This document shows, one piece after another, positions 10,840-64,000 of a stretch of 64,000 bases of DNA. The stretch is from Thermoplasmata archaeon. Lineage in GTDB: Archaea > Thermoplasmatota > Thermoplasmata > Lutacidiplasmatales > UBA184. The position numbers were made by a program, and so were the translations under genes. Under the pieces are notes generated by a model. The model was not told the origin of the DNA and made no database searches. It saw only the letters and a list, made by a program, of their open reading frames with translations. The stretch is taken from contig DAHXNZ010000001.1 in the NCBI GenBank assembly GCA_027365105.1, positions 35,290-99,289 on the forward strand, given 5' to 3'. Numbering within the stretch: position 1 is the first letter of the stretch; every line of letters starts with the position of its first letter.

Positions 10840-10846
10840 GGTGGGC

Positions 10847-43022: not shown

Positions 43023-43122
43023 CGACCCCACGAAGGGGACGTCTATTTCCCGTTTCCGCCCGGACTAGATCTGGACATCGCGCCGTTAGATTCATCTACT
43101 CGGCCCCTCCCCGTCCCTTCCC

Positions 43123-44538: not shown

Positions 44539-44602
44539 GGGTTAGGCGGGCGCCTGAACGACCGGGCCAGGCCTGCCGGTGGCGGAGACGAGATTCCCGA
44601 GT

Positions 44603-47071: not shown

Positions 47072-47127
47072 TATTAAGCTTAATATGGACGTGTCAAACC
47101 CAGACACTGATGGGTCGAATATAAATA
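47072..47127 (+). promoter_or_regulatory. palindromic operator plus TATA box upstream of paralog 3
   Basis: perfect 14-bp palindrome TATTAAGCTTAATA at 47072-47085; AATATAAATA at 47118-47127. Confidence 0.55.
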
Positions 47128-47157
47128 CTGGAACAAACCAGCGGTGCTCGAGCATCC

Positions 47158-47748: not shown

Positions 47749-47843
47749 GCCGGGTTTCTTGTCCATCAGCGGACCGGATTTCGGTCGGACGGTTGGACCG
47801 CCGGTGCCCGATGTTCGGGACTTGGGTCCGTCTCGGGGGCCCC

Positions 47844-48143
47844 ATGGAAGGTCATGGGCGGCCGATCCCGGCCGTCAAAAGGGACCGGCTGACCTTCGGC
47901 GCGGCACTGGAGCGCTTCGTCCGGGTGGCGCCTGTGTCCACCTTGGCACTCCTTGGGGCCGGCCTGGTCCTCTCCGGGCTGACAGTCCTGACCTGGATTT
48001 GGAGAACCCCATTCGGATTCTCGAGTTTTCCGGTCTGGGTCATCTTTGCCATTAACGCCGGCGTGTCGCTGGCGGGGGGCCTGATGCAGATGGCGGGGTC
48101 GGGTCCTCGGGTTAGGGCTCGAGCGAGACGGGCCGGCCGTTGA
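47844..48143 (+). CDS. small 2-TM membrane protein
   Basis: two hydrophobic segments, basic C-terminus. Confidence 0.55.
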   Translation: MEGHGRPIPAVKRDRLTFGAALERFVRVAPVSTLALLGAGLVLSGLTVLTWIWRTPFGFSSFPVWVIFAINAGVSLAGGLMQMAGSGPRVRARARRAGR

Positions 48144-49209
48144 CGACCGCAGGCGGGTTCCAGCGGCTGCGGGCGAGCCCCACCAAAAGAGCCGTGACCG
48201 CGCCGATGAGCCCGCCGATAAGGGTGTCGACCACCCGATCGATAGCCACGGTGATCCCGGCCGGGGCCAGCAGGTTGAGCAGTACGACGACAAACGGGGT
48301 CAGGAACAAGGCATAGAGAAGATAGTTGGCCCTTTGCATGACGATCGCCGCACTGATGAACACCCCGAGTATCGGAAGACTGAACGAGGCCGGCAGGAGC
48401 AGGGAGGTGATGATTCCACCCAGCCCAGCGCCCAGAATCGTTCCCGTGATCCGAGATCCCATCCGCTCCAGTGTGGCGTTCAGCGAGGATCGCATCACGA
48501 CGATGATGGTGAGGAGAACCCAGTAATCTCGGGGAAGCCCCAGGACGACCCCGACCAGCAACCCGATCGAAACCGCCGCACCCGTCGCAACCGCGGAGGC
48601 CCACTGGGACCGGGTGATCGCTCCGGTCAAGGCCTCCCCCCCGGCGTCTGGAGGCGGGAAGGAGGCGGGCCGGACGCGACGCCAGCGGGTCGCGATCGCC
48701 ACCAGTACGAGAGCCCAGGCGCCCCCCAGAAGGAACAAGGCGAAGACGACCGAAAGGGAGGGGGATCCGCTACTGCGGAGGCCCAGACCGATGACAAAAC
48801 AGGCCGACACAACGATCATCAACTCCGGGAGCGCCGCCCGGTAGCTCATCACCTCGATACCCAGGATCGCGACGCCAGAGAGAGGTACCGCCCAAAAGAC
48901 GGGGGCCATCCCGAGTCCCGCCCCCGCGGTGAACGCGAGCGCGTTCAGGATCGCGGCGAGGCCCAGCACTTTCCACCACCGACCGGGATCGGCGGTCAGC
49001 AGGACCAGCAGCACGTTGAGGGCGCCGATCGACGCCAGGACCGACTCCCCCAGCTCGCCGAGGAGGACTCCAACGCCCAGCGGTAGGACAATCCAGGCCC
49101 CCACCGCAACGGCGGGTCCGACGGAAATCAACTCCCGACGAATCGAGAGGGATGGGAGGAGGCTCCGGAGACCGACACCACCAGGTCGGTGAGGGGACGC
49201 CGGTTCCAT
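48112..49209 (-). CDS. FUSC-family membrane protein
   Basis: YWVLLTIIVVMR....T..R...RITGTILG and RVVDTLIG motifs; ATG 49209. Confidence 0.85.
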   Translation of the reverse strand: MEPASPHRPGGVGLRSLLPSLSIRRELISVGPAVAVGAWIVLPLGVGVLLGELGESVLASIGALNVLLVLLTADPGRWWKVLGLAAILNALAFTAGAGLGMAPVFWAVPLSGVAILGIEVMSYRAALPELMIVVSACFVIGLGLRSSGSPSLSVVFALFLLGGAWALVLVAIATRWRRVRPASFPPPDAGGEALTGAITRSQWASAVATGAAVSIGLLVGVVLGLPRDYWVLLTIIVVMRSSLNATLERMGSRITGTILGAGLGGIITSLLLPASFSLPILGVFISAAIVMQRANYLLYALFLTPFVVVLLNLLAPAGITVAIDRVVDTLIGGLIGAVTALLVGLARSRWNPPAVVNGRPVSLEP

Positions 49210-49771
49210 CGCGTCCTCAATCCCGCCCGGGTGATAGCCCCTTGCGCGGAGCCACGGGTCTACCCGGCCTGGTTCTCGCCATCCAATCACCCATGGTGAC
49301 CGACGGAGCCGTGGTCGGGAACGCGGCGTCGGGAACCCCCGGGCCTTACTCGGACCCCGCGGATCAGGGCGACCCCGGCGGTCCCGAGATGAAGACAGAG
49401 GGGGGCTGCACCTCACCGGCACGCCCGGTAGAACGCCCGGCGCTGGCCTCTGCTCGATCGGCGCTCTCGACCTGCGGGACCACCGGGAACGCGGCCTTCT
49501 TTCTGCCCTCGACCTGGGGCGTCCTCGGATCGCCTCCCCAACCGAGGCTCGGGTCAACCCCTGGGCGGGTGGATCACGGTGAGGAGGATCGAACGCGGCA
49601 GCGCATATTTTCCGTCACCATGGGGAACCCTCTCGGCCCGTCAGTCCTTGGCGATCCTCCCCTCCGACCGAAGGGAGGGTGGGAAGGGGTGGGAGCACGG
49701 GGGTTCAGGGAACACCCGTGGCAAGCCTGTGCCCTCCCCTGCTGGATTTGGCCGTGTGGGGGCGTGGCTAG

Positions 49772-49981
49772 ATGGCAGCCGCGTCTCGATCCATCGAGCG
49801 TCAGCGTGTAACTGGCTCGCTGACTGATCAGGCCCGGGAGAATCTGGAGGCTCAATGGCTCGGTCTTAATCGACGGCCGTCGGACTTCCCCATCCTGTGG
49901 GACCTCTACTGGCGCGTTCTCGGCCCGCTAGCGCCAGTACCCACAGACATCCACGTCCTCGAGGAGGTGCTCCTGAGATGA
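49772..49981 (+). CDS. hypothetical protein (69 aa)
   Basis: ATGA overlap with the next ORF; protein-like composition. Confidence 0.5.
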   Translation: MAAASRSIERQRVTGSLTDQARENLEAQWLGLNRRPSDFPILWDLYWRVLGPLAPVPTDIHVLEEVLLR

Positions 49982-50223
49982 GGGCCTCACTGTCGCCCCG
50001 GATCCACGCACGAGAGGAGCGGGCACTCCCGTTAGGTCAGGCAGATGCGCGAAAGGTAACTCCGGCCCCATCAGGGATCTGTCTGACGCCCGCCATTACA
50101 GCCCTTTGCGGGTCGTGTCACTCGAGAATCCGCGTCAACGAGATACTGGGGATCTCGTTCTGCGAGATCCACGGTCTCGGCGTTGCATTCGCATTCCCCA
50201 GTTTGGCTATTCGGGGGGCCTAA
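49978..50223 (+). CDS. small zinc-finger protein
   Basis: CGSC...FCEIHG (CxxC-x-CxxH). Confidence 0.55.
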   Translation: MRASLSPRIHAREERALPLGQADARKVTPAPSGICLTPAITALCGSCHSRIRVNEILGISFCEIHGLGVAFAFPSLAIRGA

Positions 50224-50388
50224 CCCCATGCTTTGCGCTTTTCCTTCCACCTCTGCCGCTCTCGCCCCCCAACCCATCCCATCCCATCCCCGGTCCGCCC
50301 CGCGTACACCACACCACCACCCACCCACCGCAACGGCACCGCACCTAACCACCCCAGCTAGCTCACGTCAGAGAAGCCGAAAGACATG

Positions 50389-50500
50389 GTCCCAACCGGG
50401 GTTGAACCCCGGTTCCCCAACCCCGGTTGCGAACCGGGGTTCACGTCAGACGGAGGGCTTCCTTGGACGCTGAATCCATGGCCCCAACCCCGGTTGGGAC
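50389..50500. repeat. five AACCCCGGTT iteron/operator-like copies bounded by a 16-bp inverted repeat
   Basis: copies at 50394(-), 50405(+), 50419(+), 50432(-), 50486(+); GTCCCAACCGGGGTTG (50389-50404) is the exact reverse complement of 50485-50500. Confidence 0.85.
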
Positions 50501-51044
50501 AGTGCCTAAGGGGCTAAAGGGACACGTTCCCCACGGCCGAGAGAAGGAGTGGGAAAAGGTCGGCCGGACGGTCTCAGTTCAGCTGACAGCACCGGTAGAG
50601 TTGATCCAATGGCTCCGCTCTAACGGCTACGTCCTGTCGAGGGTGTTCCAGGAGGCTGGGTCTCGCCTCATGAACGGCGGGGATCTGGACCGTATCGGCA
50701 AGCAGATCGAGTTTCACCGCGAGCAGGTAACGATCCTTGAGGCCGCGCTATCGAAGCTGAAGGAGCGGCGTGATGAGATGGATGCCGTCGCGTCAGCGGA
50801 GAGGGCTCGCCTCGCCGAAATCCAGGAGTTGACGGCGTTATTTTGGGAGGAGGGCCGCGGCGACTCCCGCCATTACAGCAGGCGAGCGAACCTCGCATGG
50901 TTGGAGGGGCGGGTCTCGAGTTCTAAGTCGCTGAGGGGGTCGAGTGCGGAAGACATTCTCGACCTCGTGCTGGCCGGTGGGGATCGCCCCGACGGGAACG
51001 TCCGCAGCGGCCAATGCTCCAGGGCAGCGGAGGGATCGCGATGA
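50478..51044 (+). CDS. ribbon-helix-helix-like DNA-binding protein with a coiled coil
   Basis: TVSVQLTAPVELIQWLRSNGYVLSRVFQEA (strand-helix-G-helix) followed by heptads. Confidence 0.6.
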   Translation: MAPTPVGTVPKGLKGHVPHGREKEWEKVGRTVSVQLTAPVELIQWLRSNGYVLSRVFQEAGSRLMNGGDLDRIGKQIEFHREQVTILEAALSKLKERRDEMDAVASAERARLAEIQELTALFWEEGRGDSRHYSRRANLAWLEGRVSSSKSLRGSSAEDILDLVLAGGDRPDGNVRSGQCSRAAEGSR

Positions 51045-51604
51045 CCAACGGCACTCTGGGAGACATCGTGCCTGTTTCTGGCAGGGGGTCGAGGGAGTGG
51101 GTAAACGGCTGGCTCCGCCGGTACCACTACCTCGGGGCTCTCCCTGGATGGCGGTACGCAGCTGCCCTGCGAAAACCCGAAAACGACCTCCTATGGGACG
51201 GTGTGGTCGTCGTCGGAACGCCTGCCAGCTGGGTGCTCGCCAGTAGAGATTTCCTCGAGGTGCGCCGACTCGCACTTCATCCGGGTGCCCCGAAGAACGC
51301 GGGATCCTACCTACTCGGTCACGTCAAGCGGTGGGCAGCGCGCAATGGGGTCCCTCGCCTGGTCTCCTATGCCGACCCTGCGGCGCGGGGCCCGACGAAC
51401 TGCCCGGGGAACGAGCACCGAGGAATGGTGTATCTCGCGGCGGGGTTCCGTTCCGATGGGCCATCGAGCGACCACTCTCGGGAGAAGATCTCGGGATCCC
51501 GAGCCGGGCGTCGGGGAGCGGCTTACCTCACGGGTCACTTGGGCCCGAAGCTTCGGTTTGTCTGGGAAGCAGCCCCAAACGGGCAGGATGGCGGTGCCCC
51601 ATGA
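51041..51604 (+). CDS. Mom-family (GNAT-fold) DNA adenine modification protein
   Basis: YHYLG, GVVVVGTP, LEVRRL, PKNAGSYLL, LVSYADP, HRGMVYLAAGF motifs characteristic of Mu Mom-like proteins. Confidence 0.8.
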   Translation: MTNGTLGDIVPVSGRGSREWVNGWLRRYHYLGALPGWRYAAALRKPENDLLWDGVVVVGTPASWVLASRDFLEVRRLALHPGAPKNAGSYLLGHVKRWAARNGVPRLVSYADPAARGPTNCPGNEHRGMVYLAAGFRSDGPSSDHSREKISGSRAGRRGAAYLTGHLGPKLRFVWEAAPNGQDGGAP

Positions 51605-51894
51605 CACGCACGGTCTGCCTCTCCGATCTGACCGATAGGGAGAAGGACAACACTATCCTCGTCCTTGCCGGATACGCCAGAGCCCTGAAGGCCCTCGTGG
51701 AGGAGGCAGCCGCGACAAACGGACGGCTTGAGCGCCAATTGGACCAGCTGCTCGAGGACTACGGGCCGCGTCTGGCGTTCCTCGAGACCAGCTACCGTCG
51801 ATCCGTACTCAGCAAGCAGGACGCGGCCGCTGAGGCGACGCGGAATGACCGCTTCTGGGGGCGGTTGCGAGGGCCAGGAGGGGGGCAGTCATGA
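51601..51894 (+). CDS. coiled-coil hypothetical protein (97 aa)
   Basis: ATGA overlaps at both ends; heptad pattern. Confidence 0.65.
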   Translation: MTRTVCLSDLTDREKDNTILVLAGYARALKALVEEAAATNGRLERQLDQLLEDYGPRLAFLETSYRRSVLSKQDAAAEATRNDRFWGRLRGPGGGQS

Positions 51895-52058
51895 GCCTCG
51901 AGTGGATCCTCGCGGCCTTCGAAGGCGTAGCCCGGGGCGGCATCAGCGACTGGGCGGCCATCCTGGCCGTGGATGGAGCTCTCCTCTTAGGGGTCTGGGC
52001 CGGGTATCTGTTGGGTCGGAACGGCTCGGGACGGAACTACTGGAGGCCGGGGGCATGA
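51891..52058 (+). CDS. small single-TM protein (55 aa; below the ORF-track cutoff)
   Basis: MSLEWILAAFEGVARGGISDWAAILAVDGALLLGVWAGYLLGRNGSGRNYWRPGA; ATGA overlaps on both sides. Confidence 0.65.
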   Translation: MSLEWILAAFEGVARGGISDWAAILAVDGALLLGVWAGYLLGRNGSGRNYWRPGA

Positions 52059-52507
52059 GTCGCCGCACCGTGACCGCCGTGGACGCGTTCTGCGGAGCCG
52101 GTGGTGGAGAACCCCGACCCCGCCGCGACCCGATCCCCTTCCACCCGCGATTCAACGAGGCGATCCTTCGGGGCGAGAAAACGGTAACTCGCCGCTTCCG
52201 GCCTCGACACGTAGATCAATGGCTGCGAGCGAAGAACCCGGTCGAGGGGAGGCGCCCCGACAAGTGGCCGGGGTTTGCGGATCTGGTTGTCACCGACTGC
52301 AGATCCGTTCGGCTCCAGTCGATCGACAAGCAGGAGGCGAGGCTTGAGGGTCTCGGCTCGGTCTACGAGTTTGAGCAGGTATGGCGCCAGCTCTACGAAA
52401 GGGACCCGTACCGCCGGTGGGAGCGTAACCCGCCGGTCTTCCGGATCGAGTTCAGGTGCGTTTCGCCCCCGGCAGTGCGGTTCGTGCCGCTGGAAGTCGA
52501 GGCGTGA
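52055..52507 (+). CDS. ASCH-domain protein with an N-terminal C5-MTase motif I remnant
   Basis: AVDAFCGAGG, then F...F.EAILRGEKTVTRR, RLQSI...EA..EG, NPPVFRIEF. Confidence 0.8.
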   Translation: MSRRTVTAVDAFCGAGGGEPRPRRDPIPFHPRFNEAILRGEKTVTRRFRPRHVDQWLRAKNPVEGRRPDKWPGFADLVVTDCRSVRLQSIDKQEARLEGLGSVYEFEQVWRQLYERDPYRRWERNPPVFRIEFRCVSPPAVRFVPLEVEA

Positions 52508-52787
52508 AGCCTCTAAGACAACCCGATGTGTAGAGAGCTGGACGGGGCGCCAATCGGCCCGAACGAATCGCGAAAGCGAGGTCTTGGCGGACGTAGGCGG
52601 CGTTCCTCCTCTCACGCTGTTCTGAGCCGCCCCGGCGCCCCGCCCCTAGGCATCCACTCCATGCGGAGAGTTTTTCCCTACGAGTTTCATCAACAGGACG
52701 TGTGTGGCGGGCGGATACGCCACACACACCGCCCGCCCCGCACCCAGAGAGAACGATGCGGGAACGAGAGTTGAGCGGGGGCCTGCG

Positions 52788-53504
52788 GTGAGTGAGAAGG
52801 GGAAATCGAAGGGGCAGCGGCTGTTCATCTTCGCTTTCGCGGCGGTGATCGTGGCGTTGGTCATGGTCCCGGTCGCCGCGTCGATCGGGAGCTCGCTGGC
52901 GGCCCCGTTCGACAACAGCGTCGTGCTCAGCGGGCAGAGCGGTGTCACATCGATCTGGGCCAACGATACCTATCAGATTCCCTTCACGCAGAACACCACC
53001 AGCCACGCCTACGAGTTCTCGTACCCTGCCACCTACTACTCGGCCTACCTTGTGACGAATCTCACTGTCGAGGAGCTCCAGGCCTACTCCGTGGGTTCTC
53101 TCGTCCTGGACACCTCGGACAGCGGTGCAGGTAACGTCACATTCGGTCTCGGAACCAACGCGGCCACATTCACGCCGTATGCCCTGGTTCCCGCCAGCAA
53201 GATGTCATCGGTTACGATCGCGCTCTCTCCTGCGTGGCTGCTCGGGAACCAAAGCGAGCACGTGATGCTCGAGGTGGCCACCTCCGTGGTGACCCTTTCC
53301 GTATCCGTTGCCGCCCACGGTAACACTGGGCTCTCCTCGTGGTTTGGACCCGCGCTCGCCGAGAATGTCGGCTACATTCTGGGAGGTATCGCGATCTTCG
53401 GGTTCGGGCTGCTCGCGATGCCCTGGGCTGACATCGACATCCGCAAGATCAGGGGGACGGCCAGCATGCTCACGCGTCGGCGCGCCACCCGGAGGTCCCG
53501 CTGA
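52788..53504 (+). CDS. membrane glycoprotein (N-terminal signal/TM, beta-rich domain, C-terminal TM, basic tail)
   Basis: GTG start; sequons NDT, NTT, NLT, NVT, NQS; C-terminal TM followed by RRRATRRSR. Confidence 0.75.
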   Translation: MSEKGKSKGQRLFIFAFAAVIVALVMVPVAASIGSSLAAPFDNSVVLSGQSGVTSIWANDTYQIPFTQNTTSHAYEFSYPATYYSAYLVTNLTVEELQAYSVGSLVLDTSDSGAGNVTFGLGTNAATFTPYALVPASKMSSVTIALSPAWLLGNQSEHVMLEVATSVVTLSVSVAAHGNTGLSSWFGPALAENVGYILGGIAIFGFGLLAMPWADIDIRKIRGTASMLTRRRATRRSR

Positions 53505-53950
53505 TGGCTCGGATCCGCATTGCAGGAGCCGCCCGGAACTGGGACCTTGGGGCGATCATCGTTGCCGTGATCGCCAGTCTCCTGTTCGCGGTCTCACTGC
53601 TCTCGCGCCCCCAGGTGGTCATTCTGAACCACACGGTCGTGATCAGTCAGGGTCTCGTTGTTCCCGCCATCCTAGTCGGGGCGCTCTTCTGGGCCGCGAT
53701 AGAAGTGATGACGCCCCCGGGGAAGGGGATCGCCGACCTGCTGATCCGGTCGTTGGTGGGGTTCATCATCGGTGGGATTGTCGGTGGTATCCTAGGCTAT
53801 TCGTTCAGCTTCGGCGATTACCTCCTCGCCCCGGCCTTCGCCGGGAATGCGGGCGCGATCTTCGAGCTCGTCGCGATCCTGTTCCTCGGCATGGTGGTGA
53901 TCTGGGACGCGGCCTGGTCTCATCGCCGCCAATACGTGAGGTGGCAGTAG
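53504..53950 (+). CDS. 4-TM membrane protein
   Basis: highly hydrophobic; GxxxG motifs (GFIIGGIVGGILG); TGATG overlap. Confidence 0.75.
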   Translation: MARIRIAGAARNWDLGAIIVAVIASLLFAVSLLSRPQVVILNHTVVISQGLVVPAILVGALFWAAIEVMTPPGKGIADLLIRSLVGFIIGGIVGGILGYSFSFGDYLLAPAFAGNAGAIFELVAILFLGMVVIWDAAWSHRRQYVRWQ

Positions 53951-53951
53951 G

Positions 53952-54242
53952 ATGTCCAGCAACATCGGCCAGACGATCTTCAACTCGATCTGGCAGCTCC
54001 TGCTGGGGTTTCTGCAGACGATCCTCGGCGGGGTTGCGAACGCGTTCACCGGCGTCTTTGGAGCGTTCGCCGGGGGCCTGGACACCATGTTCGAGGGCTG
54101 GGGCTACGCCCTCGGGGCATACGGGATCTGGGGCCCCCTGATGACGGTAGTGAGCCTCGCGATCGCCGGCCTCGTGGGCTACCTTTTCCTCGATTTCATG
54201 GACGCGGAGAAGGACCTCTCGGAAGACGAAGAAGAGGCATAG
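53952..54242 (+). CDS. small amphipathic/TM protein, tandem paralog A
   Basis: amphipathic helix, WGYALGAYGIWGP, TM, LD, acidic tail. Confidence 0.75.
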   Translation: MSSNIGQTIFNSIWQLLLGFLQTILGGVANAFTGVFGAFAGGLDTMFEGWGYALGAYGIWGPLMTVVSLAIAGLVGYLFLDFMDAEKDLSEDEEEA

Positions 54243-54251
54243 GGGAGGTCC

Positions 54252-54512
54252 GTGAGCTTCGTCTACGAGCTACTGCAGCTGCTCTACGGGTTCGCCAGCT
54301 CGTTCATGGCACTCGTAGCCGACACGTTCAATGGGACCCTCTACGCGGTCGACGGAGCGCTGAGCGCCATCCTGTACCAGTGGGGCTACACTGTCGGGCA
54401 GTATGGATTCTGGGTCCCGATCCTGATCGTGGCGGGACTCGGCGTCACAGCGACGGCTTCGTACGCGGTGCTCGACCTTACTGACGGAGCGCGGACCGCC
54501 TTGGGGTACTGA
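54252..54512 (+). CDS. small amphipathic/TM protein, tandem paralog B
   Basis: GGAGG RBS; WGYTVGQYGFWVP, TM, LD. Confidence 0.75.
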   Translation: MSFVYELLQLLYGFASSFMALVADTFNGTLYAVDGALSAILYQWGYTVGQYGFWVPILIVAGLGVTATASYAVLDLTDGARTALGY

Positions 54513-54514
54513 CA

Positions 54515-54838
54515 ATGTCGTGCGACCCTTCCAACCCCTTCACGTGGCTCCAGTGCGTTACCGGGGGGGTTACCCAGGCCTTTCTCACCGAGTTCGAGAA
54601 CGCGGCCCTCTACGTCACCGCGAGCCTGCTGAGCACGATCCTTGGGGTGATGCAGTCTCTCTCCACAGTATGGTTGGGAATGATGTCGGAGCTCCTGGGG
54701 CTGTGGGAGAGCATCGCGGAAGTTCTCGGGCCTCTCTCTGCCCCGGTGTTTCTGGTCTTCCTCGTGATCACGTCTGCGGGGCTGATCCTGGCACTGGATC
54801 TCGCGAAGGACACTCCCGTCCTGGACATGTTCGTGTGA
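54515..54838 (+). CDS. small amphipathic/TM protein, tandem paralog C
   Basis: N-terminal Cys pair, amphipathic helix, LGPLSAP, TM, LD. Confidence 0.7.
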   Translation: MSCDPSNPFTWLQCVTGGVTQAFLTEFENAALYVTASLLSTILGVMQSLSTVWLGMMSELLGLWESIAEVLGPLSAPVFLVFLVITSAGLILALDLAKDTPVLDMFV

Positions 54839-54848
54839 GGGTGTCAAG

Positions 54849-57800
54849 ATGCGCGTTCGGCTGCTCGCCCTTCTCCTGGCTTCCTCCGCGGTTCTGATGG
54901 GTCTCGTGGTAGTGCCAAGCGCCTCGGGGGCGACTGGGCCATGTTCTGGGGCGACCCCGCCGGTGTTTGCCGTCTACGCGTCGCCGAATCCGGTGCACGT
55001 GGGCGCCACGACAGTCCTCTCGTTGGACCTCACCGGCCTTGGGAGCAGCACCCCGGACACCGTAACGTGGTACGTCCAGAACGGAGGCAACGGATCTCTG
55101 ACCGAGGTCCAGACTAAGACGGTCGCAAGGGCCGCCAATTACACGTACAACTGGACGGCTCTGGGAGGTTATCCGGACTGGGAGGGCACCGTGGTCGGCG
55201 CCACGGGATGCGCGGTAACCCATCTGACCGGTATCACGGAGATCGGGGGCATCTCCGTCTCGCTTTCGCAGTCCAAGGACCAGGTAGACGAGGGAGCCAC
55301 CGTTAGTTACAGCGCAACAGTCTCTGGCGGGTCGTCCTATACGTATCGCTGGACCGGGTGCTCGTCGAGCACGGCGACCTGCAGCCATACCTTCACCTCT
55401 ACTGGGTCCTTCTCGGTCACTGTCCAAGCGACTGACTCGGCGGGGAGCACCAACGCCTCGAGTGTGACTACCCGAGTGTTCCCGGCCCTGTCGCTGCGCC
55501 TCTCTGCGATCCCCAACTCCGCCGACGTGTCGACAGTCATCGAATGGACGGCCGCCGCCACCGGTGGCAGCGGAGCCTACGAATTCGGAGGTGCCCCGGG
55601 GGGAGGGGCGATCAGCTACGCCGGTACGCAGGGCGCGGTCACCGTATGCGGTTCCCAGTCCTCCTACACCGCGCCGAGCGAGCTCAACTGCAGCGCGGTC
55701 ATGGGATCCAATGTCCAACCGGGAACCATCCAGTCCACGGCATGCGTGACGGACGCGACAGGTGAATCGGCCTGTGGGAGCGCCTATGTGGACATCCATG
55801 CCGACCCGTCTGCGGTCATCGGTGGCCCGATGTACGTCGACGTCGGGACCCCGGCGACCTGGCAAGGATTTGCGATCAACGGAACGGCCCCATTCAATTA
55901 CACCTGGTCCGCGGGGGCCGGGACAATCGGGACTGCCGAGAACCTGACCTATTCTTTCGCGAGCCCGGGCCAATATACGCTCAGGCTTCAGGTCGCCGAT
56001 TCGGCAACCAGGACGGCTGAGGCGAACCTCTCGGTTACCGTCTTCTCCGATCCGGTCGTGTCGGCAACCAACAACCTCACCTCGACCGGCGGGAAGGCCG
56101 ACATAGGGTTCCCAGTCGGGTTCTCCTCGACAGCGAGTGGCGGGGTCGGCGGCTACACGTATCGGTGGGTCCTCAACGGGGTGGTCGTCGGCAACTCGTC
56201 CAGCCTTTCGCGGAGCTTTGGGTCCCCGGGGACCTACACGCTCATCGCTCGAGTAACTGATTCTGCGGGGACGGTAGAGTCAGCGGATACCACCGTCACG
56301 ATTGTCGCCAACCCATCCGTTACCGCTTCGTCGACTCCTTCGGTGGTCGACAGCGGCTCGACAGCGCAGATTCAGGCCACCGTCACCGGCGGGACCGGGG
56401 CGGTGAGCTATTCGTGGTCCATCGCAGGCGTAGAAGTTTCCACGAGCCCGTCCTTTTCTCACGCGTTCGGCAGTGTCGGGAACTACTCCGTCAGCGTTAC
56501 AGTCACCGATCAGGACGGCCACACCGCGTCCTCGCAGATCACCGTCCAAGTGGTACCGGACCCTTCCGTTACGATCGGGATCACACCCGACCCTGCGGAT
56601 GTTGGGATTGCCGTCGTGTTCGTCGGTAACGCCTCCGGCGGTGTCGGCCCCTACAACTGGACTTGGACCATTGGGAGCCATACCCGATACGGGCAGCGCG
56701 TGGTCGTGGCCTTCAACGCGTCCGGAGCCCACTCGGTCCGCCTCGAGCTGTCTGACTCCGAGAGTGTTACCGCGACCTCCAGCACCAGCCTCGCCGTAAA
56801 CGCGGACCCGCAAGTGCAGGTGTCGGCAGAGTTCGGAACTGTCGACCAAGGGGTCAACGACACATTCAGCGCCGAAACGCTGGGCGGCTCTCCACCGATC
56901 AACTACACCTGGTCGGTCAACGGATCAGTTCGGGGCTGGGGATCCCAGTTCGTAGCGGCCTTCGGAGCGGTCGGGCATTACAACGTGTCGGTAGTGGCCA
57001 CGGACGGTCTCGGACTGGTTTCCCGAGGGTATCAGGTCGTTACCGTCACGGCAGCCCCCGAGGTGGAGATCATCGGACCCACCAAGGTCGACTACGGAGT
57101 GGCCGCGAGCTGGATCGCCAACGGATCTCTCGGGACTGCGCCCTACAACTACACGTGGGAGGTCCAGCAATCGGTGGCGGGCTACGGGGCCATCTTCCGC
57201 CACTCGTTCTCCGCGGTGGGCTCCCTGACACTCGGCCTCGTCCTCACGGACTCCCAGGGCGGGAGGGCCTGGGCGAACGTCACAGTCGTCGTGGCGGCGT
57301 TCCCGACTGCGGTGGTAACCGCCAATGTGACAGCCACGGATCTCGGGATACCGGTCGCGGCCACATGTCAGGTATCCGGGGGGAGCGCGCCCTACCAATA
57401 CGAGTGGATCGTTGGCGGATCCACTGCCGGGAGCGAGTCTTCTGTGACGTTCACCGGATCCCGAGCCGGCAGCATCGTGGCGGAATGCATCGTCACGGAC
57501 GCAGCCGGTGCCCGCGCTACAGCGAACGACACCACGCAGATCAATCCCTCCCCCTCGGTGTCGTTTGCGATTCCATCTCCCAACCTCGACCCCAACACCA
57601 CCGTTACGCTCACCGCCAGCGCCTCCAACGGGACACCGGCGTACTCGTACGTCTGGATGGTAGATGGTTCCGTAGTCTCCCGATCTCGGACCGCGAACCT
57701 CACGTTCGGCGCCCCGGGATCCTACACGGTCGAGCTCGAGGTAATCGACGCCGTCGGAGCAATCGCGACGGAGACTCGGTCGGTTGCGGTGCAGCCCTAC

Positions 57801-59570
57801 CCGACAGTGGCCATAGAGCCGTCCTCGACGCACATTGACGTAGGCATCAACGAGTCCCTGAGAGCCCAGCTGCGGGGAGGAGTGGGGCCGTACTCCTACT
57901 CGTGGTTGGTGGGAGGGACCGCCTACAACAGCACCGCTGTCTCGTTCGCTTGGGCGGCCGCTGGAAACTACACAGTCACGCTCGTGGTCGGGGACGTATT
58001 CGGGCACGACGCCAGCGCCACCGTCCAGATCAGCGTGTACCCGGACCCCACGATCGGAGTCGAGCACGCATCGTCGCTGCCGGTGGTTTCGGTGCCCTAC
58101 ACCCTTACGGCAGTGGTGTCCGGTGGCTATGGCCCGTACCAGTATCTCTGGACCTTCGGAAGCGGTCAACAGGCCAACGGCAGCCAGATTTCGCACGTGT
58201 TCGAGACCGGAGGTCCTCGGACCTACCAGGTGAGGATTACCGACGCGGGCGGCTTCACCGGGGTCACCTCCTTCGACGTCTTGGTGCGGCTCTTCGTCTC
58301 GGCGTCTGAGACCGCTGGCAGCGGCTCGGCGCCGCTTACCGAGTTCTTTCTGGCATCGGCGCTGGGCGGAGCCGGCTACGCCTACAATTGGTCCTTCGGC
58401 AACGGAAACTACTCCGTCTCGCCGAGCCCCCAGGAGACCTTCGGCGCCGGGAACTGGACCGTAGAACTCGAGGTCCGTGCCGCTAACGGAGCGGTGGGAT
58501 TCGCCAACCTGACGGTGATCTCACTTCCGCCTCCGGTGGTCGTCACGTGGACGCCCGCACAGAACATCACGGTAGAGACTGAGGTGAACTTCACCGCCGC
58601 CCCCAGCTGGGTCGCGGGCCAGAACCACACGTCCACGTGGGTGTTCCCGAACGGGGTCCAAGCCACTGGGGATAGGGTCCAGCACGAGTTCAGGCAGTAT
58701 GGAGAGTTCCAGACCGTACTGTTCACCTTCAGCTATTCGGGGGGCAACTACTCCCTAGACATCACCGTGGAAATGCGCCCAGGGGCCCCTACTGCGGTGA
58801 TCGGGGGACTCGCTTCGGATGAGCCCTCAGGCACCCTGTTGGCCCTCAACGGCGCAAAGTCGAGCTCGCCAGACGCGAACATCACTACCTGGCAGTGGTC
58901 GGTCGATAGCCCGACTGCGTCACTGGCCTACTCTGGCACGACCGTATACCTCTACGCGAACGCGACCGGGCGCTGGAATGTGTCTCTGACGGTCCTGGAC
59001 TCGCTGGGCGCCACGGGAACGGCCTCTGTGACGTTCCTCGTGGAGATTCCCGGGAGCTCCCAGAACATCTCGATCCTGGTGCAATCGCACGCCTTCGCGG
59101 ACTCGATGCGGTACAATGTGACCGTAAGGTCCGCCTCCTCCCCGATTAGCGCGGTCGATGCCCTACTCGGTGGGTCCGTCCTGCCGATCACTCGAGTCAA
59201 CGGATCTGGGAACTGGCAGAACTATAGCCTGACGCTCAGCTTCGGTTCCTACAACGCTGGAACGTACTCCCTGGAGATAGTCGCGTTCACCCAGAACGGC
59301 GGCTCGAACTCCACCACTCTCTCGCTCACCATCTCTCCCGTGTCCGGGGTCGGAGGGTTCGACCTTGTCTCCTTCCTCGGAGGACCGACCAACTTCCTGG
59401 TCATCGTCCTGACAGCAATGGGATCCATCGCTGCTGTCGTGGGTCTACGACAGCGGGACACCACGAACATCGACATCGACGGGACCGTACTCACAGGCCG
59501 GCCGGGCGGCGAGTTGCGCCTCAGCAGGCGCAGTAGCACCCCGGGATCAACAAGGAAGGGAGAACAGTAG
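54849..59570 (+). CDS. large PKD/Ig-repeat surface protein with a C-terminal membrane anchor
   Basis: many GG.xPY.Y.W...SF.xxG.Y.V.L.VTDxxG repeats; signal peptide; C-terminal TM. Confidence 0.9.
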   Translation: MRVRLLALLLASSAVLMGLVVVPSASGATGPCSGATPPVFAVYASPNPVHVGATTVLSLDLTGLGSSTPDTVTWYVQNGGNGSLTEVQTKTVARAANYTYNWTALGGYPDWEGTVVGATGCAVTHLTGITEIGGISVSLSQSKDQVDEGATVSYSATVSGGSSYTYRWTGCSSSTATCSHTFTSTGSFSVTVQATDSAGSTNASSVTTRVFPALSLRLSAIPNSADVSTVIEWTAAATGGSGAYEFGGAPGGGAISYAGTQGAVTVCGSQSSYTAPSELNCSAVMGSNVQPGTIQSTACVTDATGESACGSAYVDIHADPSAVIGGPMYVDVGTPATWQGFAINGTAPFNYTWSAGAGTIGTAENLTYSFASPGQYTLRLQVADSATRTAEANLSVTVFSDPVVSATNNLTSTGGKADIGFPVGFSSTASGGVGGYTYRWVLNGVVVGNSSSLSRSFGSPGTYTLIARVTDSAGTVESADTTVTIVANPSVTASSTPSVVDSGSTAQIQATVTGGTGAVSYSWSIAGVEVSTSPSFSHAFGSVGNYSVSVTVTDQDGHTASSQITVQVVPDPSVTIGITPDPADVGIAVVFVGNASGGVGPYNWTWTIGSHTRYGQRVVVAFNASGAHSVRLELSDSESVTATSSTSLAVNADPQVQVSAEFGTVDQGVNDTFSAETLGGSPPINYTWSVNGSVRGWGSQFVAAFGAVGHYNVSVVATDGLGLVSRGYQVVTVTAAPEVEIIGPTKVDYGVAASWIANGSLGTAPYNYTWEVQQSVAGYGAIFRHSFSAVGSLTLGLVLTDSQGGRAWANVTVVVAAFPTAVVTANVTATDLGIPVAATCQVSGGSAPYQYEWIVGGSTAGSESSVTFTGSRAGSIVAECIVTDAAGARATANDTTQINPSPSVSFAIPSPNLDPNTTVTLTASASNGTPAYSYVWMVDGSVVSRSRTANLTFGAPGSYTVELEVIDAVGAIATETRSVAVQPYPTVAIEPSSTHIDVGINESLRAQLRGGVGPYSYSWLVGGTAYNSTAVSFAWAAAGNYTVTLVVGDVFGHDASATVQISVYPDPTIGVEHASSLPVVSVPYTLTAVVSGGYGPYQYLWTFGSGQQANGSQISHVFETGGPRTYQVRITDAGGFTGVTSFDVLVRLFVSASETAGSGSAPLTEFFLASALGGAGYAYNWSFGNGNYSVSPSPQETFGAGNWTVELEVRAANGAVGFANLTVISLPPPVVVTWTPAQNITVETEVNFTAAPSWVAGQNHTSTWVFPNGVQATGDRVQHEFRQYGEFQTVLFTFSYSGGNYSLDITVEMRPGAPTAVIGGLASDEPSGTLLALNGAKSSSPDANITTWQWSVDSPTASLAYSGTTVYLYANATGRWNVSLTVLDSLGATGTASVTFLVEIPGSSQNISILVQSHAFADSMRYNVTVRSASSPISAVDALLGGSVLPITRVNGSGNWQNYSLTLSFGSYNAGTYSLEIVAFTQNGGSNSTTLSLTISPVSGVGGFDLVSFLGGPTNFLVIVLTAMGSIAAVVGLRQRDTTNIDIDGTVLTGRPGGELRLSRRSSTPGSTRKGEQ

Positions 59571-59963
59571 ATGGGGCTATTCGGAGGACCGGGAAGCCGA
59601 AACAAGGTACGCAGCGCAGACAAGAGGACAGCGGAAAGGGACACCCGGCAGATCATGACCGAATCGAAGGAGCTGCGTCGGCAGATCAGCAGGGATATGT
59701 TCCAGCCCGGGCGTGTCACTGCCCGTCAGATTTCCGCGAACCTCGGCAGAATCGATCGGCAGCTCACCGCGCTTGAGAAGCTTCGAGGCGCCGTGACTTC
59801 GAACCACGACAAGTATGCCGAGATCAGCGCGGAGAAGGCCAGGCTCAAGGAGCAGGGCCGAGCTCTCAAGCTCGCGAAGAAGGCGGAGCGCCTTGGCGCC
59901 TCCCCGAAAGAAGTCGCGAAGAGCGGCGGCATTCTCTCGCTGCTGGCGCGGAGGAAGAGGTAG
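59571..59963 (+). CDS. basic all-helical protein (130 aa)
   Basis: TAGATG junctions at both ends; Lys/Arg-rich coiled coil; MGLFG N-terminus. Confidence 0.7.
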   Translation: MGLFGGPGSRNKVRSADKRTAERDTRQIMTESKELRRQISRDMFQPGRVTARQISANLGRIDRQLTALEKLRGAVTSNHDKYAEISAEKARLKEQGRALKLAKKAERLGASPKEVAKSGGILSLLARRKR

Positions 59964-60095
59964 ATGGGCTGGCTGTCCGATCTGACTGGGGCGATCCTGC
60001 TCATCGGGGCGGCGGTGGTGGTAGCCGCGTACTTCGGGATCACTTGGACGACTGTCGTGCACTCGGCATCACAGTTCTGGGGAGGGCTGCCATGA
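59964..60095 (+). CDS. small single-TM protein (43 aa; not in track)
   Basis: MGWLSDLTGAILLIGAAVVVAAYFGITWTTVVHSASQFWGRLP; coupled start and stop. Confidence 0.65.
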   Translation: MGWLSDLTGAILLIGAAVVVAAYFGITWTTVVHSASQFWGGLP

Positions 60096-63000
60096 GGCGT
60101 TATCCGGACTGGATTGCACTCGGCCTTGTAGCCGTCATCCTGGTGAGCGGCGTCTATGTCGCTGCCGCGAACCAGTCACCTCCAAACGATCCCCACGGGG
60201 GTCATCCCATTCCCGCGGGGGTCGCGCTTCCTACTGTGACGGGGCCATTCGAAGGATTGGTGAAATACAACCTCACTGCCGAACCCCAACGGGTCGCCTA
60301 TGACCCAACGACTGGAGAGGCCTTCGTCTCCACTTATGGCCGACTGGAGGTTCTCAACACGAGCAACGGATCGGTAGCGGGGTCTATCACCACTGCTGGA
60401 TCCGCCCCGCAGCACTCCGCTGACTATCCGGTAGTTTACGACCCCCGGGATGGCATAGTGTACGAGGGGATCTACGGGAACGCGACGATCGAGTACGTCT
60501 ATCCCTCCAATCTCACCCACGGCACAATCCCGGTGTACGGGGCTGACTACGCGATGCAGCTACTGTACGATCCGATCGCCGGCAAGGTCATGATAGTGGG
60601 GCCAGCTGGGCACGGATTCTGGACACTCGACGGCCTCACCGCGACTAACACGACGACCCAGTTTGGAGTCGCGGCGAATGCTACCCTGGGCGACCTCTAC
60701 GCAGCATACTTTGGAGCGGCGGGAATGGTATACGTGGCGTCAGCCAATGCGATCGCATCCGGCCATCCGGTCTGGGGACTGAATGCCTCGACATTATCCG
60801 AAGTGTCTTACACGGTCGTCCCTCTTACCTGGCAATGGGGAGATTTCATCCCGGGGAATGGAACCGAGGTTGGTGTAAGTTATGAGGGCTACTTTTCGGC
60901 AGTCAACCTGACATCAGGAAAGGAGACCAATTGGACCTGGACCGCCTCAAGCGTCGGGTCTCCCTACTACTCGCTGGCATACTCTCCCGCGTCTAAGACT
61001 TTTGCATTGGCCTCGAAGCATGATTACGTTCGGCTCTTCTCGCTGACGAATGGGACAGTTTGGGAGGCGGACGTCTCTGGGGCCGTACCCCAGGTGGGCT
61101 ACTTGGGGGGCGCGATCAATGAGTTTGCCGCGAGTTCCTGGAACCCTCCCCAATCCCCTGGAATCGCACTGTTCCTCATCAGTACCGCGGGAAAGGTCCA
61201 ATCAGTGACCACCGGCATGGACACATTCAGCCTGACAGTAGTCGGCAACACGGTTTGGGTCGGAGGATCACAATACGGGAGCTATCCCGATGCTGATGCC
61301 ATTGAGTCATACACACTTAGTGCTCAGACAAGGGAAGTGGTATGGTCGATCATCGGCCAACTACCGCAGTTCGGTTGGGGCATAACCGTGGGTGGGGCGA
61401 ACCATCCGGCGCCGATCGGCAATCGCTCTCTCACAGTAGAGGTGACGTCCAACTATGCTTACAATTGGACTGCGACGGCCAAAGACTACCGCCTCAGCCC
61501 TTCAGAAGGGATGATCCCGGCATCCAATCAGACCCCACCTCTTCTCATCAATCTGACGGCAACCTTGAGCCGGCCGATTGACTTTGCCCAGTCTGGGGGG
61601 AACGCGTCAGGGGCCGACCTGAAGTGGGTCACTCCACCCGGTACAGTGAATGTGACCCTGTTAGAAGGGACCAAGACTGGAAGTGGTGTCGGGTGCAGCG
61701 TTGTATCGAGGGTATCCATCGGGAATGTCTCGTCTGGATTGGATGCTGCATTTGGTTGCGTGGCGGTAGAAACCTGGAACTCGTCAGGAGTTTCCGGGCA
61801 GACTCCTTTCATAAACACAACCCAGTTCCTCCCGGACATGACCTACTTTCAGCTCCCCGGGTGGAACAACCTGTCTGCCTATGCGTACGACAACGCCTGT
61901 GCGTCTAACGCGACCTGTGGCGCGCAGCATCCCCCGGGAGGGATCCAGCAACCACTAATCTCCTGGACGTCGGACGGCGTCTATTATGTCAACGCCACCA
62001 ACCGACTGGTGTACTATTCCTTCCTCAACCGATCAGTCACTCACCACTGGCCATGGATTCCTCTCTACCAGCAGATCATGACCTATCCCGGGATCGAGAA
62101 CACCGAATGGATTACTCCTAACGGGGAGTGGGTCTACACGTTTGGGACGATTAGCCCCGGTGGCACTACGATCACATTCTTCGGCGTGAACATATCCTCG
62201 GGAAAGACTGCAGAACACAATTTCTCGGGGCCGTTCAACCTCTCCTCCAGCGGTCTTTCCACGAACATCCAAGTGAATGTCATCGGCATAGACGGGGAGT
62301 ACAACACAGTAGCCATGCTGTGGGCTCCGGGGCCGTCATTCGTGTTGTGGTCGCTGGTCAATGGCTCTCAGTGGGTGGCGGGGAACGGGGCCATGTTCGG
62401 CCACCTCGGGACCGCGGGTGTTGAGGCCAACAACATCTACTGGGTCCCCGAACTCAATTCTCTGATCGAAATTTACGCCGATGGAGTTCCCACGTCGGGT
62501 TGGACTCAGTTCCTCTGGAATGGCAGTGGATTCCAGAACATATCGTGGGGGCTGATACCCTCACTCTCCAATGGGGTCCAGGGTCTATTCTTCAACCTGA
62601 CGTCCCATCGGCTGTACTCCGATGTTCAGGCGAGCCCAACTACGCAGTATACCTTCTTTTGGGACATCAACGGAACTGCGCTGGGTTCGATCCACCTCGT
62701 GTCGCGATCAATAGAGGTGACGGCTCCTGTGCACCGAATGATGGAGTCTGCCGGGGGCGAAGCAGTAGGCGGAGACAATGTCCCGGGCTATCCTGATGGG
62801 ACAGGGCACTGGGCGACAGCATTCACCGCCAATGGCTCCGTGGAGGCGGCCTCCCCGTACACTATGCTCGGGAGTTGGACATGGACGCCCCAGTCGTTAG
62901 AAGGCCTTGGGTTCGATTCGTCGTACCAGCTGTATCCGCTTCTCAGCGACTGCTATCGCAATCCCTGTGCAATTAGCGGAACGAACGCAAACTGGAGTGG

Positions 63001-64000
63001 AGCGGGCAATGTGGCCCTGGTGGGGGCTGACTCGTTCCCCGCTGGTGCGCCGCTTGTCCTCGGCCCCCCAGCCCCTCCGCTTCTCACCGTCAAACTAACC
63101 GCGTACACGGCGAATCTATCTTGGTCCGAGCCGGCATCCAGTGAGGCCCTGAACTATACCATTTGGTGGGGTGTGGCGGGGAAGCCATTCACACATTCCG
63201 TTTCGCTTCTCCCCACTAACAACTCCTACACCATCGCAGGGCTCAACTCATCCACCCACTACGAGTTTGAGGTCATCGCTCACAACCTCGATTGGTACGG
63301 CAACGGATCTATCTCGGGGCAAACCGCGAACACGTATTCTGTTACCTTCAAAGAATCCGGCCTGCCCGCCGGGAAAAGCTGGTCCATCACCTGGAACGGT
63401 GCAAATTACACGTCTCAGAACGAGACGCTGGCCTTGAGCGCGACGAATGGATCCTACTCGTGGGATATCCCCGCCGAGGGGTCCCTAACACCGAGTCCCT
63501 CTGCAGGTATCACGAACGTCTCGGGAACTGACGTCAGTATCACGGTGACATTCTCCTCATGGTCACCGCCAGCGACACCGAACAGCATCTCCTCCTCCGT
63601 CGTAGGGTCGACCTACGCGATACTTCAATGGGGGGCAGTAGCTGGTGCGCGGAACTACAGCATCTCGGAGGGAGGAACCTGCTCGAGCTTAGGAGCCTCC
63701 CAATCTCTGGGCAACGTTCTCCAGGACAATCTGTCTGGATTGACCCCTGGAACGGGATACTGCATCGGGATTCGCGCCTGGAACGGGACAGTAGGGGTCA
63801 ACCTCACCGACGACACCCAAATCTTTACTGGTGCACCCGTGGTTGCCTCGGTCAATGCCGAGTCTATTGATGTGGACGTCAACTGGCAGAACCCAACCGG
63901 CGAACCGGCAGTGGTGGTAGACGCGGTCTACCTCTACGCGGCAGATGGCTCCTATCTGGGATCTTCTGGTACCGGTGGACCAGCGACCTCGATCATTCTT
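60092..64000 (+). CDS. large secreted adhesin/spike (>1300 aa, runs off the window): YVTN-like propeller, FxESGLP repeat, FnIII domains
   Basis: ATG 60092 (MRRYPDWIALGLVAVILVSG...AYDPTTGEAFVS); the same frame gives VTFKESGLPAGKSWSITWNG at 63341 and GLTPGTGYCIGIRAWNG; absent from the track, consistent with no stop in the window (frame spot-checked, not read end to end). Confidence 0.85.
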   Translation, partial: MRRYPDWIALGLVAVILVSGVYVAAANQSPPNDPHGGHPIPAGVALPTVTGPFEGLVKYNLTAEPQRVAYDPTTGEAFVSTYGRLEVLNTSNGSVAGSITTAGSAPQHSADYPVVYDPRDGIVYEGIYGNATIEYVYPSNLTHGTIPVYGADYAMQLLYDPIAGKVMIVGPAGHGFWTLDGLTATNTTTQFGVAANATLGDLYAAYFGAAGMVYVASANAIASGHPVWGLNASTLSEVSYTVVPLTWQWGDFIPGNGTEVGVSYEGYFSAVNLTSGKETNWTWTASSVGSPYYSLAYSPASKTFALASKHDYVRLFSLTNGTVWEADVSGAVPQVGYLGGAINEFAASSWNPPQSPGIALFLISTAGKVQSVTTGMDTFSLTVVGNTVWVGGSQYGSYPDADAIESYTLSAQTREVVWSIIGQLPQFGWGITVGGANHPAPIGNRSLTVEVTSNYAYNWTATAKDYRLSPSEGMIPASNQTPPLLINLTATLSRPIDFAQSGGNASGADLKWVTPPGTVNVTLLEGTKTGSGVGCSVVSRVSIGNVSSGLDAAFGCVAVETWNSSGVSGQTPFINTTQFLPDMTYFQLPGWNNLSAYAYDNACASNATCGAQHPPGGIQQPLISWTSDGVYYVNATNRLVYYSFLNRSVTHHWPWIPLYQQIMTYPGIENTEWITPNGEWVYTFGTISPGGTTITFFGVNISSGKTAEHNFSGPFNLSSSGLSTNIQVNVIGIDGEYNTVAMLWAPGPSFVLWSLVNGSQWVAGNGAMFGHLGTAGVEANNIYWVPELNSLIEIYADGVPTSGWTQFLWNGSGFQNISWGLIPSLSNGVQGLFFNLTSHRLYSDVQASPTTQYTFFWDINGTALGSIHLVSRSIEVTAPVHRMMESAGGEAVGGDNVPGYPDGTGHWATAFTANGSVEAASPYTMLGSWTWTPQSLEGLGFDSSYQLYPLLSDCYRNPCAISGTNANWSGAGNVALVGADSFPAGAPLVLGPPAPPLLTVKLTAYTANLSWSEPASSEALNYTIWWGVAGKPFTHSVSLLPTNNSYTIAGLNSSTHYEFEVIAHNLDWYGNGSISGQTANTYSVTFKESGLPAGKSWSITWNGANYTSQNETLALSATNGSYSWDIPAEGSLTPSPSAGITNVSGTDVSITVTFSSWSPPATPNSISSSVVGSTYAILQWGAVAGARNYSISEGGTCSSLGASQSLGNVLQDNLSGLTPGTGYCIGIRAWNGTVGVNLTDDTQIFTGAPVVASVNAESIDVDVNWQNPTGEPAVVVDAVYLYAADGSYLGSSGTGGPATSIIL

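Follow-up and report, generated by a model that had tools for sequence, protein, structure and literature searches.

A tRNA-integrated, provirus-like element of a mine-drainage Thermoplasmata archaeon with a late operon related to pleolipovirus assembly genes

What kind of mobile element is made up so largely of membrane-protein genes, with no recognisable capsid gene among them? This question was raised by a dense gene run in the window, a 64,000-nucleotide stretch (G000:C111:35290-99289) of a 224-kb contig from the genome of an uncultured Thermoplasmata archaeon (G000; 1.83 Mb, 68.6% GC, 201 contigs), for which an original prediction had proposed an undescribed provirus-like element at positions 49640-64000. 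We find that the element spans window positions 49688-82361 (32.7 kb), with ~18 kb lying beyond the window end; the start first proposed is therefore 48 nt from the true left end, whereas position 64000 was simply the edge of the window and the element ends at 82361. Positions above 64000 continue the window numbering into the next 30 kb of the contig, which we also examined. The last two genes of the element's late operon, m270 and an ATPase gene, are homologous to the pleolipovirus morphogenetic genes ORF7 and NTPase, with the weaker match for m270, and we think it moderately probable that the element is a temperate, enveloped, pleolipovirus-related virus present as a provirus or provirus-like form.

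To compare the modules we used six pleolipovirus genomes, in which the order is VP3, the VP4 spike, a ~180-amino acid (aa) signal-plus-anchor protein, a 255-294-aa protein, and the NTPase. In the element, m202, m270, and the ATPase (202, 270, and 454 aa) match pleolipovirus ORF6, ORF7, and NTPase in order and build, and the two modules share the succession of small membrane protein, spike, ORF6-like protein with signal and anchor, ORF7-like protein, and NTPase. When the ATPase family (23 sequences) was aligned with the six pleolipovirus NTPases, hhalign returned 97.4% (E 9.9e-12, 227 columns), the only value above 1% for any of 40 family pairs (8 element families by 5 pleolipovirus families), and HRPV-1 VP8 alone gave 93.7%. 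A hidden Markov model (HMM) of the pleolipovirus NTPases matched G000 at 2.3e-5. The only PHROG match of the ATPase was phrog_1979 (1.2e-5), which was also the top match of all three ATPase homologues tested and which holds all four pleolipovirus NTPases tested (HRPV-1, His2, HRPV-10, and HRPV-9; E below 1e-92). By these profile comparisons, the predicted ATPase is a homologue of the pleolipovirus NTPase (VP8-like). The original prediction had suggested looking for a packaging or VirB4-like ATPase in the neighbouring sequence; the ATPase present there, this pleolipovirus NTPase homologue, is not VirB4-like. A PDB profile search aligned RecA only around the Walker A region, matched HerA at E 0.071, and returned no VirB4 among the best 60 of 129 matches.

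For m270, a seven-sequence profile compared with six ORF7 proteins gave an hhalign value of 45.9% (E 2.1e-4) over 104 collinear columns, relative to 0.2-0.7% for three control pairs and to 0.5% in an earlier, shallower local profile run. A Foldseek search with the m270 model returned a single BFVD match at E <=0.001, a 294-aa His2 protein (1.3e-4; next best 0.16). In the His2 record only ORF31, the ORF7 counterpart, is 294 aa long; it is annotated with two internal transmembrane regions, and m270 and ORF31 both have two internal hydrophobic segments. Taken together, m270 is probably homologous to pleolipovirus ORF7 and His2 ORF31, with moderate support. In the ESM Atlas, the nearest cluster to m270 was an unnamed one of the Thermoplasmata phylum (Thermoplasmatota; 0.90), and DUF8125/8126 archaeal clusters at 0.80-0.85 are leads only; a search for homologous proteins with m270 returned only three near-identical proteins.

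Several observations weigh against a pleolipovirus-related virus. The VP4 fusogen, which is the hallmark of the pleolipovirus group according to Baquero et al. 2024, was not detected by sequence: HMMs of six VP4s gave a best E of 2.1 against all six-frame open reading frames (ORFs) of three elements, hhalign of VP4 against the element families reached at most 0.6%, and in sequence searches of PDB neither m266 nor the fn3 giant nor the m202 profile reached the VP5 entries 6qgi, 6j7v, and 6qgl, which the searched database does contain. Neither VP3 nor ORF6 showed sequence similarity to any module protein by HMM or hhalign; m202 is like ORF6 in position and signal-plus-anchor build, with an hhalign value of 0.2% and no HMM match, and m148, with its four hydrophobic segments, lacks sequence similarity to VP3 by either method. 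The AlphaFold model of m270 is weak (pLDDT 63.3), with TM-scores to the His2 protein of 0.25 and 0.23. The ATPase has a generic RecA/Zot/DnaB-like P-loop fold, Zot matched 2 of 22 family members, and Foldseek with the ATPase model against BFVD and PDB returned only generic RecA, DnaB, Zot, and packaging-ATPase folds (TM 0.2-0.3). No match to the ATPase was found in IMG/VR (pattern scans) or in 50,697 phage and 72,556 plasmid records (tblastn), and pattern scans of genome contigs and metagenome contigs yielded no confirmed relative. A replication protein was not recognised in the G000 copy by family scans of its ORFs, and no particle, circular form, or CRISPR spacer match was seen; none of six short high-identity DNA hits lay in a repeat array among 100 same-genus genomes, with two candidates scored per genome, a depth at which spacers may be missed. 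Finally, at 32.7 kb the element is two to four times the known pleolipovirus size (7-17 kb according to PMC10919331). Because no VP4 was found and the element exceeds this size range, we did not file it as a pleolipovirus. It differs from pleolipoviruses further in that a 1573-aa PKD protein and, in the G000 copy, a 1405-aa fn3 protein take the spike position, in its additional small hydrophobic proteins and its basic protein of 130 aa, and in its host, a non-halophilic, high-GC archaeon from mine drainage. The likeness to Pleolipoviridae (HRPV-1, His2, HRPV-9/-10) and the related 'Thalassapleoviridae' (AvPV1) lies in the homologous NTPase and the probable ORF7/His2 ORF31 homologue directly upstream of it, as well as in being temperate, with a tyrosine integrase and no capsid gene.

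The lack of a detectable fusogen, the 32.7-kb size with cargo, and a serine recombinase besides the integrase would also suit an integrative plasmid-like element moved in membrane vesicles or by a cell-contact apparatus, with the membrane proteins and adhesins making the contact and the ATPase pumping DNA. A weak TrbC/VirB2 match (E 0.011, below cutoff) in the m266 homologue of one related element, that of genome G338, points the same way, as does the likeness to the pT26-2 family of Thermococcales and Methanococcales, which PMC6972569 describes as integrated elements of 17-38 kb with a transmembrane-rich conserved block, large surface proteins, an ATPase, a variable region, an integrase at a tRNA, no capsid gene, and a function that is not agreed. 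By that description, on which the comparison is based, the pT26-2 ATPase is a HerA/VirB4-like AAA+ protein, whereas the ATPase here falls in the pleolipovirus NTPase family, with phrog_1979 as its sole PHROG match. Moreover, no relaxase, coupling protein, or VirB4 family was found in any ORF scanned, the plasmid records held no match, and a related element in genome G176 carries a Fusello_VP2-family virion-protein homologue inside the module. We therefore regard a plasmid- or vesicle-borne element, although the main rival reading, as rather unlikely. The ATPase family, together with the integrase, att (attachment) sites, and empty-site junction described below, favours an enveloped, pleomorphic virus, one of the options originally proposed, over the conjugative option that had been named beside it.

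The ends of the element were located from its integration site (Table 1). An integrase and att repeats, which the original prediction had left to the sequence past the window, are both present in the layout of a tRNA-integrating element: the tyrosine integrase gene lies beside, and overlaps, a tRNA gene whose 3' end recurs at the far end of the element. This tRNA gene has a ~96-nt insertion in the anticodon loop, and its anticodon, read by eye, is CCA (Trp). ARAGORN missed the gene and Rfam caught it, so ARAGORN alone may overlook tRNA-targeted islands in this genome. No direct repeat that the two border regions have in common is longer than the 15-bp sequence GGTGGGAGCACGGGG, which is exact at 49688 and at 82347; at <=2 mismatches the copy at 49688 is the sole one in the window. 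By itself, however, this repeat is weak evidence for element ends, since a second 15-mer repeat is also present and window shuffles matched the GGTGGGAGCACGGGG pattern (<=2 mismatches) in 64 of 100 trials. The ends are instead settled because attR is the 3' end of the tRNA and because of contig breakpoints and an empty-site joint.

Public contigs were mapped on window 42000-61999; the runs holding this DNA are mostly mine-drainage metagenomes. In this mapping, contigs from all four runs start at 49688-49700. In the probable source run, X1, one contig tracks the left flank to 49702 and then continues for 15 letters, ATTTGAACCCCGATA, which are the sequence past the right repeat. We take these public contigs to have been built from a 31-mer graph (k = 31), and a 15-letter tail is the expected trace of such a graph at a true flank-repeat-flank joint; this one contig thus indicates an empty-site (or excised) form. 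In runs X2, X3, and X5, from three other studies, the 49.7-60 kb region is present and there is almost no depth over 42.7-49.3 kb, with listed pieces of other-study runs differing from the window at, for example, 1 of 1955 and 33 of 2808 letters. The boundaries, the integration site, and the empty-site form were thus all observed, and the element is probably still able to excise.

These data also bear on whether the locus is a decaying or domesticated island that has lost transfer and whose surface-protein genes now serve the host. Element and flank have similar contig depth in the source run (42-62 kb mapping), no replication protein was recognised in G000 whereas the relative in G176 has an MCM helicase, and a remnant resembling an insertion sequence (IS) at ~72.05-72.36 kb is common to many genomes of the genus, all of which would fit such an island. 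Against it, the late genes are all open and tightly packed, the integrase reading frame is uninterrupted over the Pfam domain, the two att repeats do not differ, the source run has an empty-site junction, and three other studies contain near-identical copies that lack this flank, so that we judge this explanation very improbable.

GC content drops from ~0.70-0.75 to 0.57-0.66 between window 42 kb and ~82 kb (extended). A single insertion covering the whole low-GC 43.1-82.5 kb region was rejected, since 43.1-44.5 kb is 80-85% conserved in the nearest relative, G028, and an insertion beginning at 43.1 kb was also ruled out by the other runs, which carry the element from 49688 and not 42.7-49.3 kb. 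We therefore place 43.1-49.6 kb outside the element, because its first two genes are kept in G028 and because it is absent from the other-study runs. The G028 contigs break at ~44.7 kb and 82.6 kb, that is, around the insertion site. This left flank, between a host VOC gene and the element, encodes three paralogous Thr/Ser-rich secreted proteins with similar N-termini (195, 266, and 196 aa; window 43123-43710, 43738-44538, and 47158-47748), of which the first two are conserved in G028 and the remainder is variable; the same region holds an IS110-like transposase fragment (45854-46360, by eye) and 292-aa and 481-aa membrane proteins.

The flanks lie close together in relatives, which speaks against the block being a syntenic core of the genus, an outcome that would have refuted the original prediction. 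By tblastx, host genes at 40.9-43.0 kb sit 0.5-4.5 kb from the gene at 82.5 kb in four same-genus genomes (G002, G003, G032, and G008). The gene at 82.5 kb encodes an ABC-transporter binding protein and is present in 36 of 41 same-genus genomes, and only short patches of element DNA were found in 100 same-genus genomes searched; this tally and the same-genus DNA searches include three genomes flagged as unpublished (G019, G136, and G245), on which none of the individual claims depends. The ATPase protein was present in 2 of 61 genomes including G000, which corresponds to one of the 36 other genomes of the genus, and its profile matched 13 genomes, G000 among them, out of 401 from the class. 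A search of 1.84 billion representative proteins gave only 23 relatives of the ATPase at E <=0.001, of which all named ones are 'hypothetical'. The element is thus not syntenic core and is absent from same-genus relatives.

Table 1. Coordinates of the element's features, numbered as window positions ("extended" marks positions counted past the window end along the contig).
Feature	Position	Strand	Details
attL, 15-bp direct repeat GGTGGGAGCACGGGG	49688..49702	+	exact repeat; contig ends
Five 10-bp repeats (AACCCCGGTT or complement)	50394..50495		at start of first early ORF
First early gene, putative regulator	50427..51044	+	ATG 50478; N-terminal RHH-like stretch and coiled coil
Mom-like protein	51014..51604	+	PF25680, 8.8e-8, above cutoff
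ASCH-domain protein	51728..52507	+	PF04266, 3.3e-6; likely start ATG 52055
m266, putative type-I-like envelope protein	52704..53504	+	266 aa; hydrophobic segments at ~residues 35 and 221; 5 sequons
m148, small membrane protein	53504..53950	+	148 aa; 4 hydrophobic segments; VP3-like in build only
Three small hydrophobic proteins	53952..54838	+	96, 86, and 107 aa
PKD-repeat protein	54849..59570	+	1573 aa; PKD_4 3.3e-72; 47 N-x-S/T sequons; N-terminal signal, C-terminal anchor
p130, basic coiled-coil protein	59571..59963	+	130 aa; 32 K+R vs 14 D+E
Second giant surface protein, fn3	60092..64000 in window	+	1405 aa from 60044, end 64261
m202, ORF6-like build	extended 64258-64866	+	202 aa; signal and anchor
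m270, ORF7-like	extended 64863-65675	+	270 aa; two internal hydrophobic segments
Predicted P-loop ATPase/NTPase, VP8 homologue	extended 65678-67042	+	454 aa
Serine recombinase	extended 67035-67595	+	
Type II methyltransferase and Mrr_cat endonuclease	extended 72850-75219	-	right-arm cargo
Tyrosine integrase	extended 81357-82367		open across Pfam domain
attR, second copy of GGTGGGAGCACGGGG	extended 82347-82361 (L001:18347-18361)		overlaps tRNA 3' end
tRNA gene, intron-containing	extended 82349-82513 (L001:18349-18513)	-	Rfam RF00005, 41.7 bits, E 1.8e-7

The tightly coupled plus-strand run seen in the window is real and continues past it, with 13 consecutive plus-strand genes at 52704-67595 (extended) spaced by -8 to +10 nt. 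Its late block is as first described, being composed of membrane proteins and two giant surface proteins. The 1573-aa PKD protein is a putative spike or adhesin, and the basic p130 is a putative genome-binding protein; a 43-aa hydrophobic peptide is encoded between p130 and the fn3 giant, which has an fn3 match at 3.1e-17, 49 sequons, and N- and C-terminal anchors. In an ESM Atlas search, m266 returned nothing above 0.77. Pfam was run on nearly all ORFs and PHROGs on ten late-block proteins, and within this coverage no capsid (HK97 or jelly-roll), terminase, portal, or type IV secretion system family was matched, which agrees with the absence of capsid, terminase, and portal genes remarked on in the window. 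Weak PHROG matches to tape-measure and tail families, at E 0.0035 to 0.00046, coincide with stretches that are hydrophobic or of fn3 type. Nor do the downstream genes belong to a standard tailed virus or a known type IV secretion system, either of which would have counted against the enveloped-virus proposal.

The late block is shared by three other Thermoplasmata genomes, G176, G338, and, in part, G014. By tblastn, a single block in each of G176 and G338, from another family of the class, contains m266, m148, m96, the PKD giant, m202, m270, and the ATPase, in the G000 order save for a swap of m266 and m148 in G176, and the PKD giant is 36-38% identical over ~1400 residues in both genomes. p130 was also found in G338 (tblastn), and a 3.9-kb contig of G014, which belongs to the same genus as G000, encodes m202, m270, and the ATPase, while the fn3 giant is specific to the G000 copy and absent from the related elements. 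The late operon is thus conserved and tightly packed. Both G176, a one-contig genome of ~38% GC, and G338 encode a tyrosine integrase downstream, the 3' end of which runs into a gene for tRNA-Met in G176 and for tRNA-Ala in G338. In G176 the tRNA end recurs as a 13-bp repeat 32 kb away, making that element ~32 kb, and a repeat of the tRNA-Ala end was not found in G338. The MCM helicase of G176 is encoded in the early region of its element. ORFs resembling IS200/IS605-type transposase pairs (by eye) also occur in the G176 element (G176:C1 517.6-549.6 kb), with an integrase-like fragment just past the far repeat.

Directly after the PKD giant, G176 has a small gene whose product matches PF25632 Fusello_VP2_Capsid (1.7e-8, above cutoff), and G338 has a weak Fusello_VP2 match (E 0.22) at the same position, which in G000 is occupied by p130, with no match to this family in G000. 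Could the element instead be a spindle-shaped, fusellovirus-like virus, with the small hydrophobic proteins as major capsid proteins and the giants as tail fibres? Like Fuselloviridae (SSV1), it encodes small hydrophobic proteins and one very large surface protein, with three tandem 86-107-aa hydrophobic proteins just before the latter, and the VP2-family protein of G176 adds to this likeness. However, relaxing the Pfam threshold to E 10 still gave no family for the 96-, 86-, and 107-aa proteins, G000 has no VP2 match, and the ORF7-NTPase pair points to pleolipoviruses. Integration of the SSV type splits the integrase gene; here the gene is intact in the integrated state. We accordingly give little credence to a spindle-shaped virus and retain the pleolipovirus-related, enveloped virus as the best explanation.

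A compact element of ~11.5 kb, in a genome from another family of the class (G119:C7, ~12.4-24.0 kb), encodes an ATPase of this family (378 aa) together with surface proteins of 292 and 234 aa, both anchored, a 250-aa protein in which two hydrophobic segments are internal, and a 319-aa ORF read by eye as an integrase. Being as large as a classical pleolipovirus, it could form a bridge between the two groups.

The early block of the element only partly matches its first description as zinc finger, iterons, RHH, Mom, and ASCH genes. The Mom-like and ASCH-domain proteins are supported by Pfam matches (PF25680, 8.8e-8, and PF04266, 3.3e-6), and the iterons correspond to five AACCCCGGTT copies, which may represent an operator or origin before and over the start of the first early gene; the zinc finger was not borne out, since the 49897-50223 ORF matched no families. 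For RHH, a ribbon-helix-helix-like N-terminus of the 50427-51044 product can be read by eye, and no family search supports it. The right arm carries further cargo candidates, including a 190-aa protein (extended 68768-69340) with weak PADLOC matches (PDC-M19A 2e-7; DarG 4e-4) and a 147-aa Imm5-like protein (extended 80278-80721; PF21805, 2.8e-6); PADLOC returned nothing for 388-aa and 291-aa proteins or the Mrr-like endonuclease. The DNA of the IS-like remnant (extended 72055-72362) is 66-82% identical to many genomes of the genus. Elsewhere in the window, a second low-GC stretch (0.555-0.58) at 9456-13000 directly follows tRNA-Pro (9456-9533) and may be a tRNA-linked island.

How new is such an element? 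The label 'undescribed' that the locus first received has to be tempered, since PMC10919331, citing Medvedeva 2023, reports VP4-bearing pleolipovirus-like proviruses in Methanomassiliicoccales, an order of Thermoplasmatota. Those proviruses are likewise integrated, pleolipovirus-related, and hosted by Thermoplasmatota, but by their description, on which the comparison is based, they are recognised by a VP4-like fusogen of the kind not found in the G000 element. In the literature searched, which did not extend to Medvedeva et al. 2023 and its supplements, we found no description of an element with a pleolipovirus-type NTPase and PKD spikes in Thermoplasmata. According to PMC13573593, a survey of proviruses among 5041 and 2275 genomes recorded no more than 30 regions from Thermoplasmatota and Nanobdellota combined. 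It is possible, and we suggest it tentatively and with some doubt, that the ~32-kb Thermoplasmata elements are large, enveloped archaeal viruses that make up a group new at the level of a family or above and keep only the ORF7-NTPase core of pleolipoviruses, with VP4 replaced by giant PKD spikes and with a basic genome-coating protein, which in one member is of the fusellovirus VP2 family.

If the element is a pleolipovirus-related virus, it may be pictured as follows. The tyrosine integrase would insert the element into the tRNA 3' end of the uncultured mine-drainage archaeon, and the early block, with its regulator on the 10-bp array and its Mom-like and ASCH proteins, would control the switch and modify DNA. 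The late operon would then build an enveloped, capsid-less particle, in the envelope of which would sit the four-segment membrane protein and the small hydrophobic proteins, while the PKD and fn3 giants, heavily glycosylated, would serve there as spikes that bind the host, with the basic 130-aa protein coating the DNA. Together with the NTPase, the ORF6-like and ORF7-like membrane proteins would load the genome and bring about non-lytic budding, as has been proposed for pleolipoviruses, and the right arm would hold cargo such as the type II restriction-modification pair. In its comparable parts, the element would work like a pleolipovirus.

Few viruses are known for Thermoplasmata. Should the element be a virus, the pleolipovirus lineage would reach into mine-drainage archaea and its known genome size would roughly double; the ORF7-NTPase pair would also be seen to work with entirely different spikes, so that the deepest marker of the lineage would be this pair and not VP4. 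As a practical probe, the ATPase profile finds related elements in 13 of 401 genomes of the class (including G000) versus nothing in phage records or IMG/VR. As a plasmid transferred by vesicles or contact, the element would instead bear on the plasmid-virus continuum that has been proposed around pleolipoviruses. Should the new-group reading prove true, these elements would link the pleomorphic and spindle-shaped archaeal viruses and would include the first non-tailed virus of acidophilic mine-drainage Thermoplasmata.

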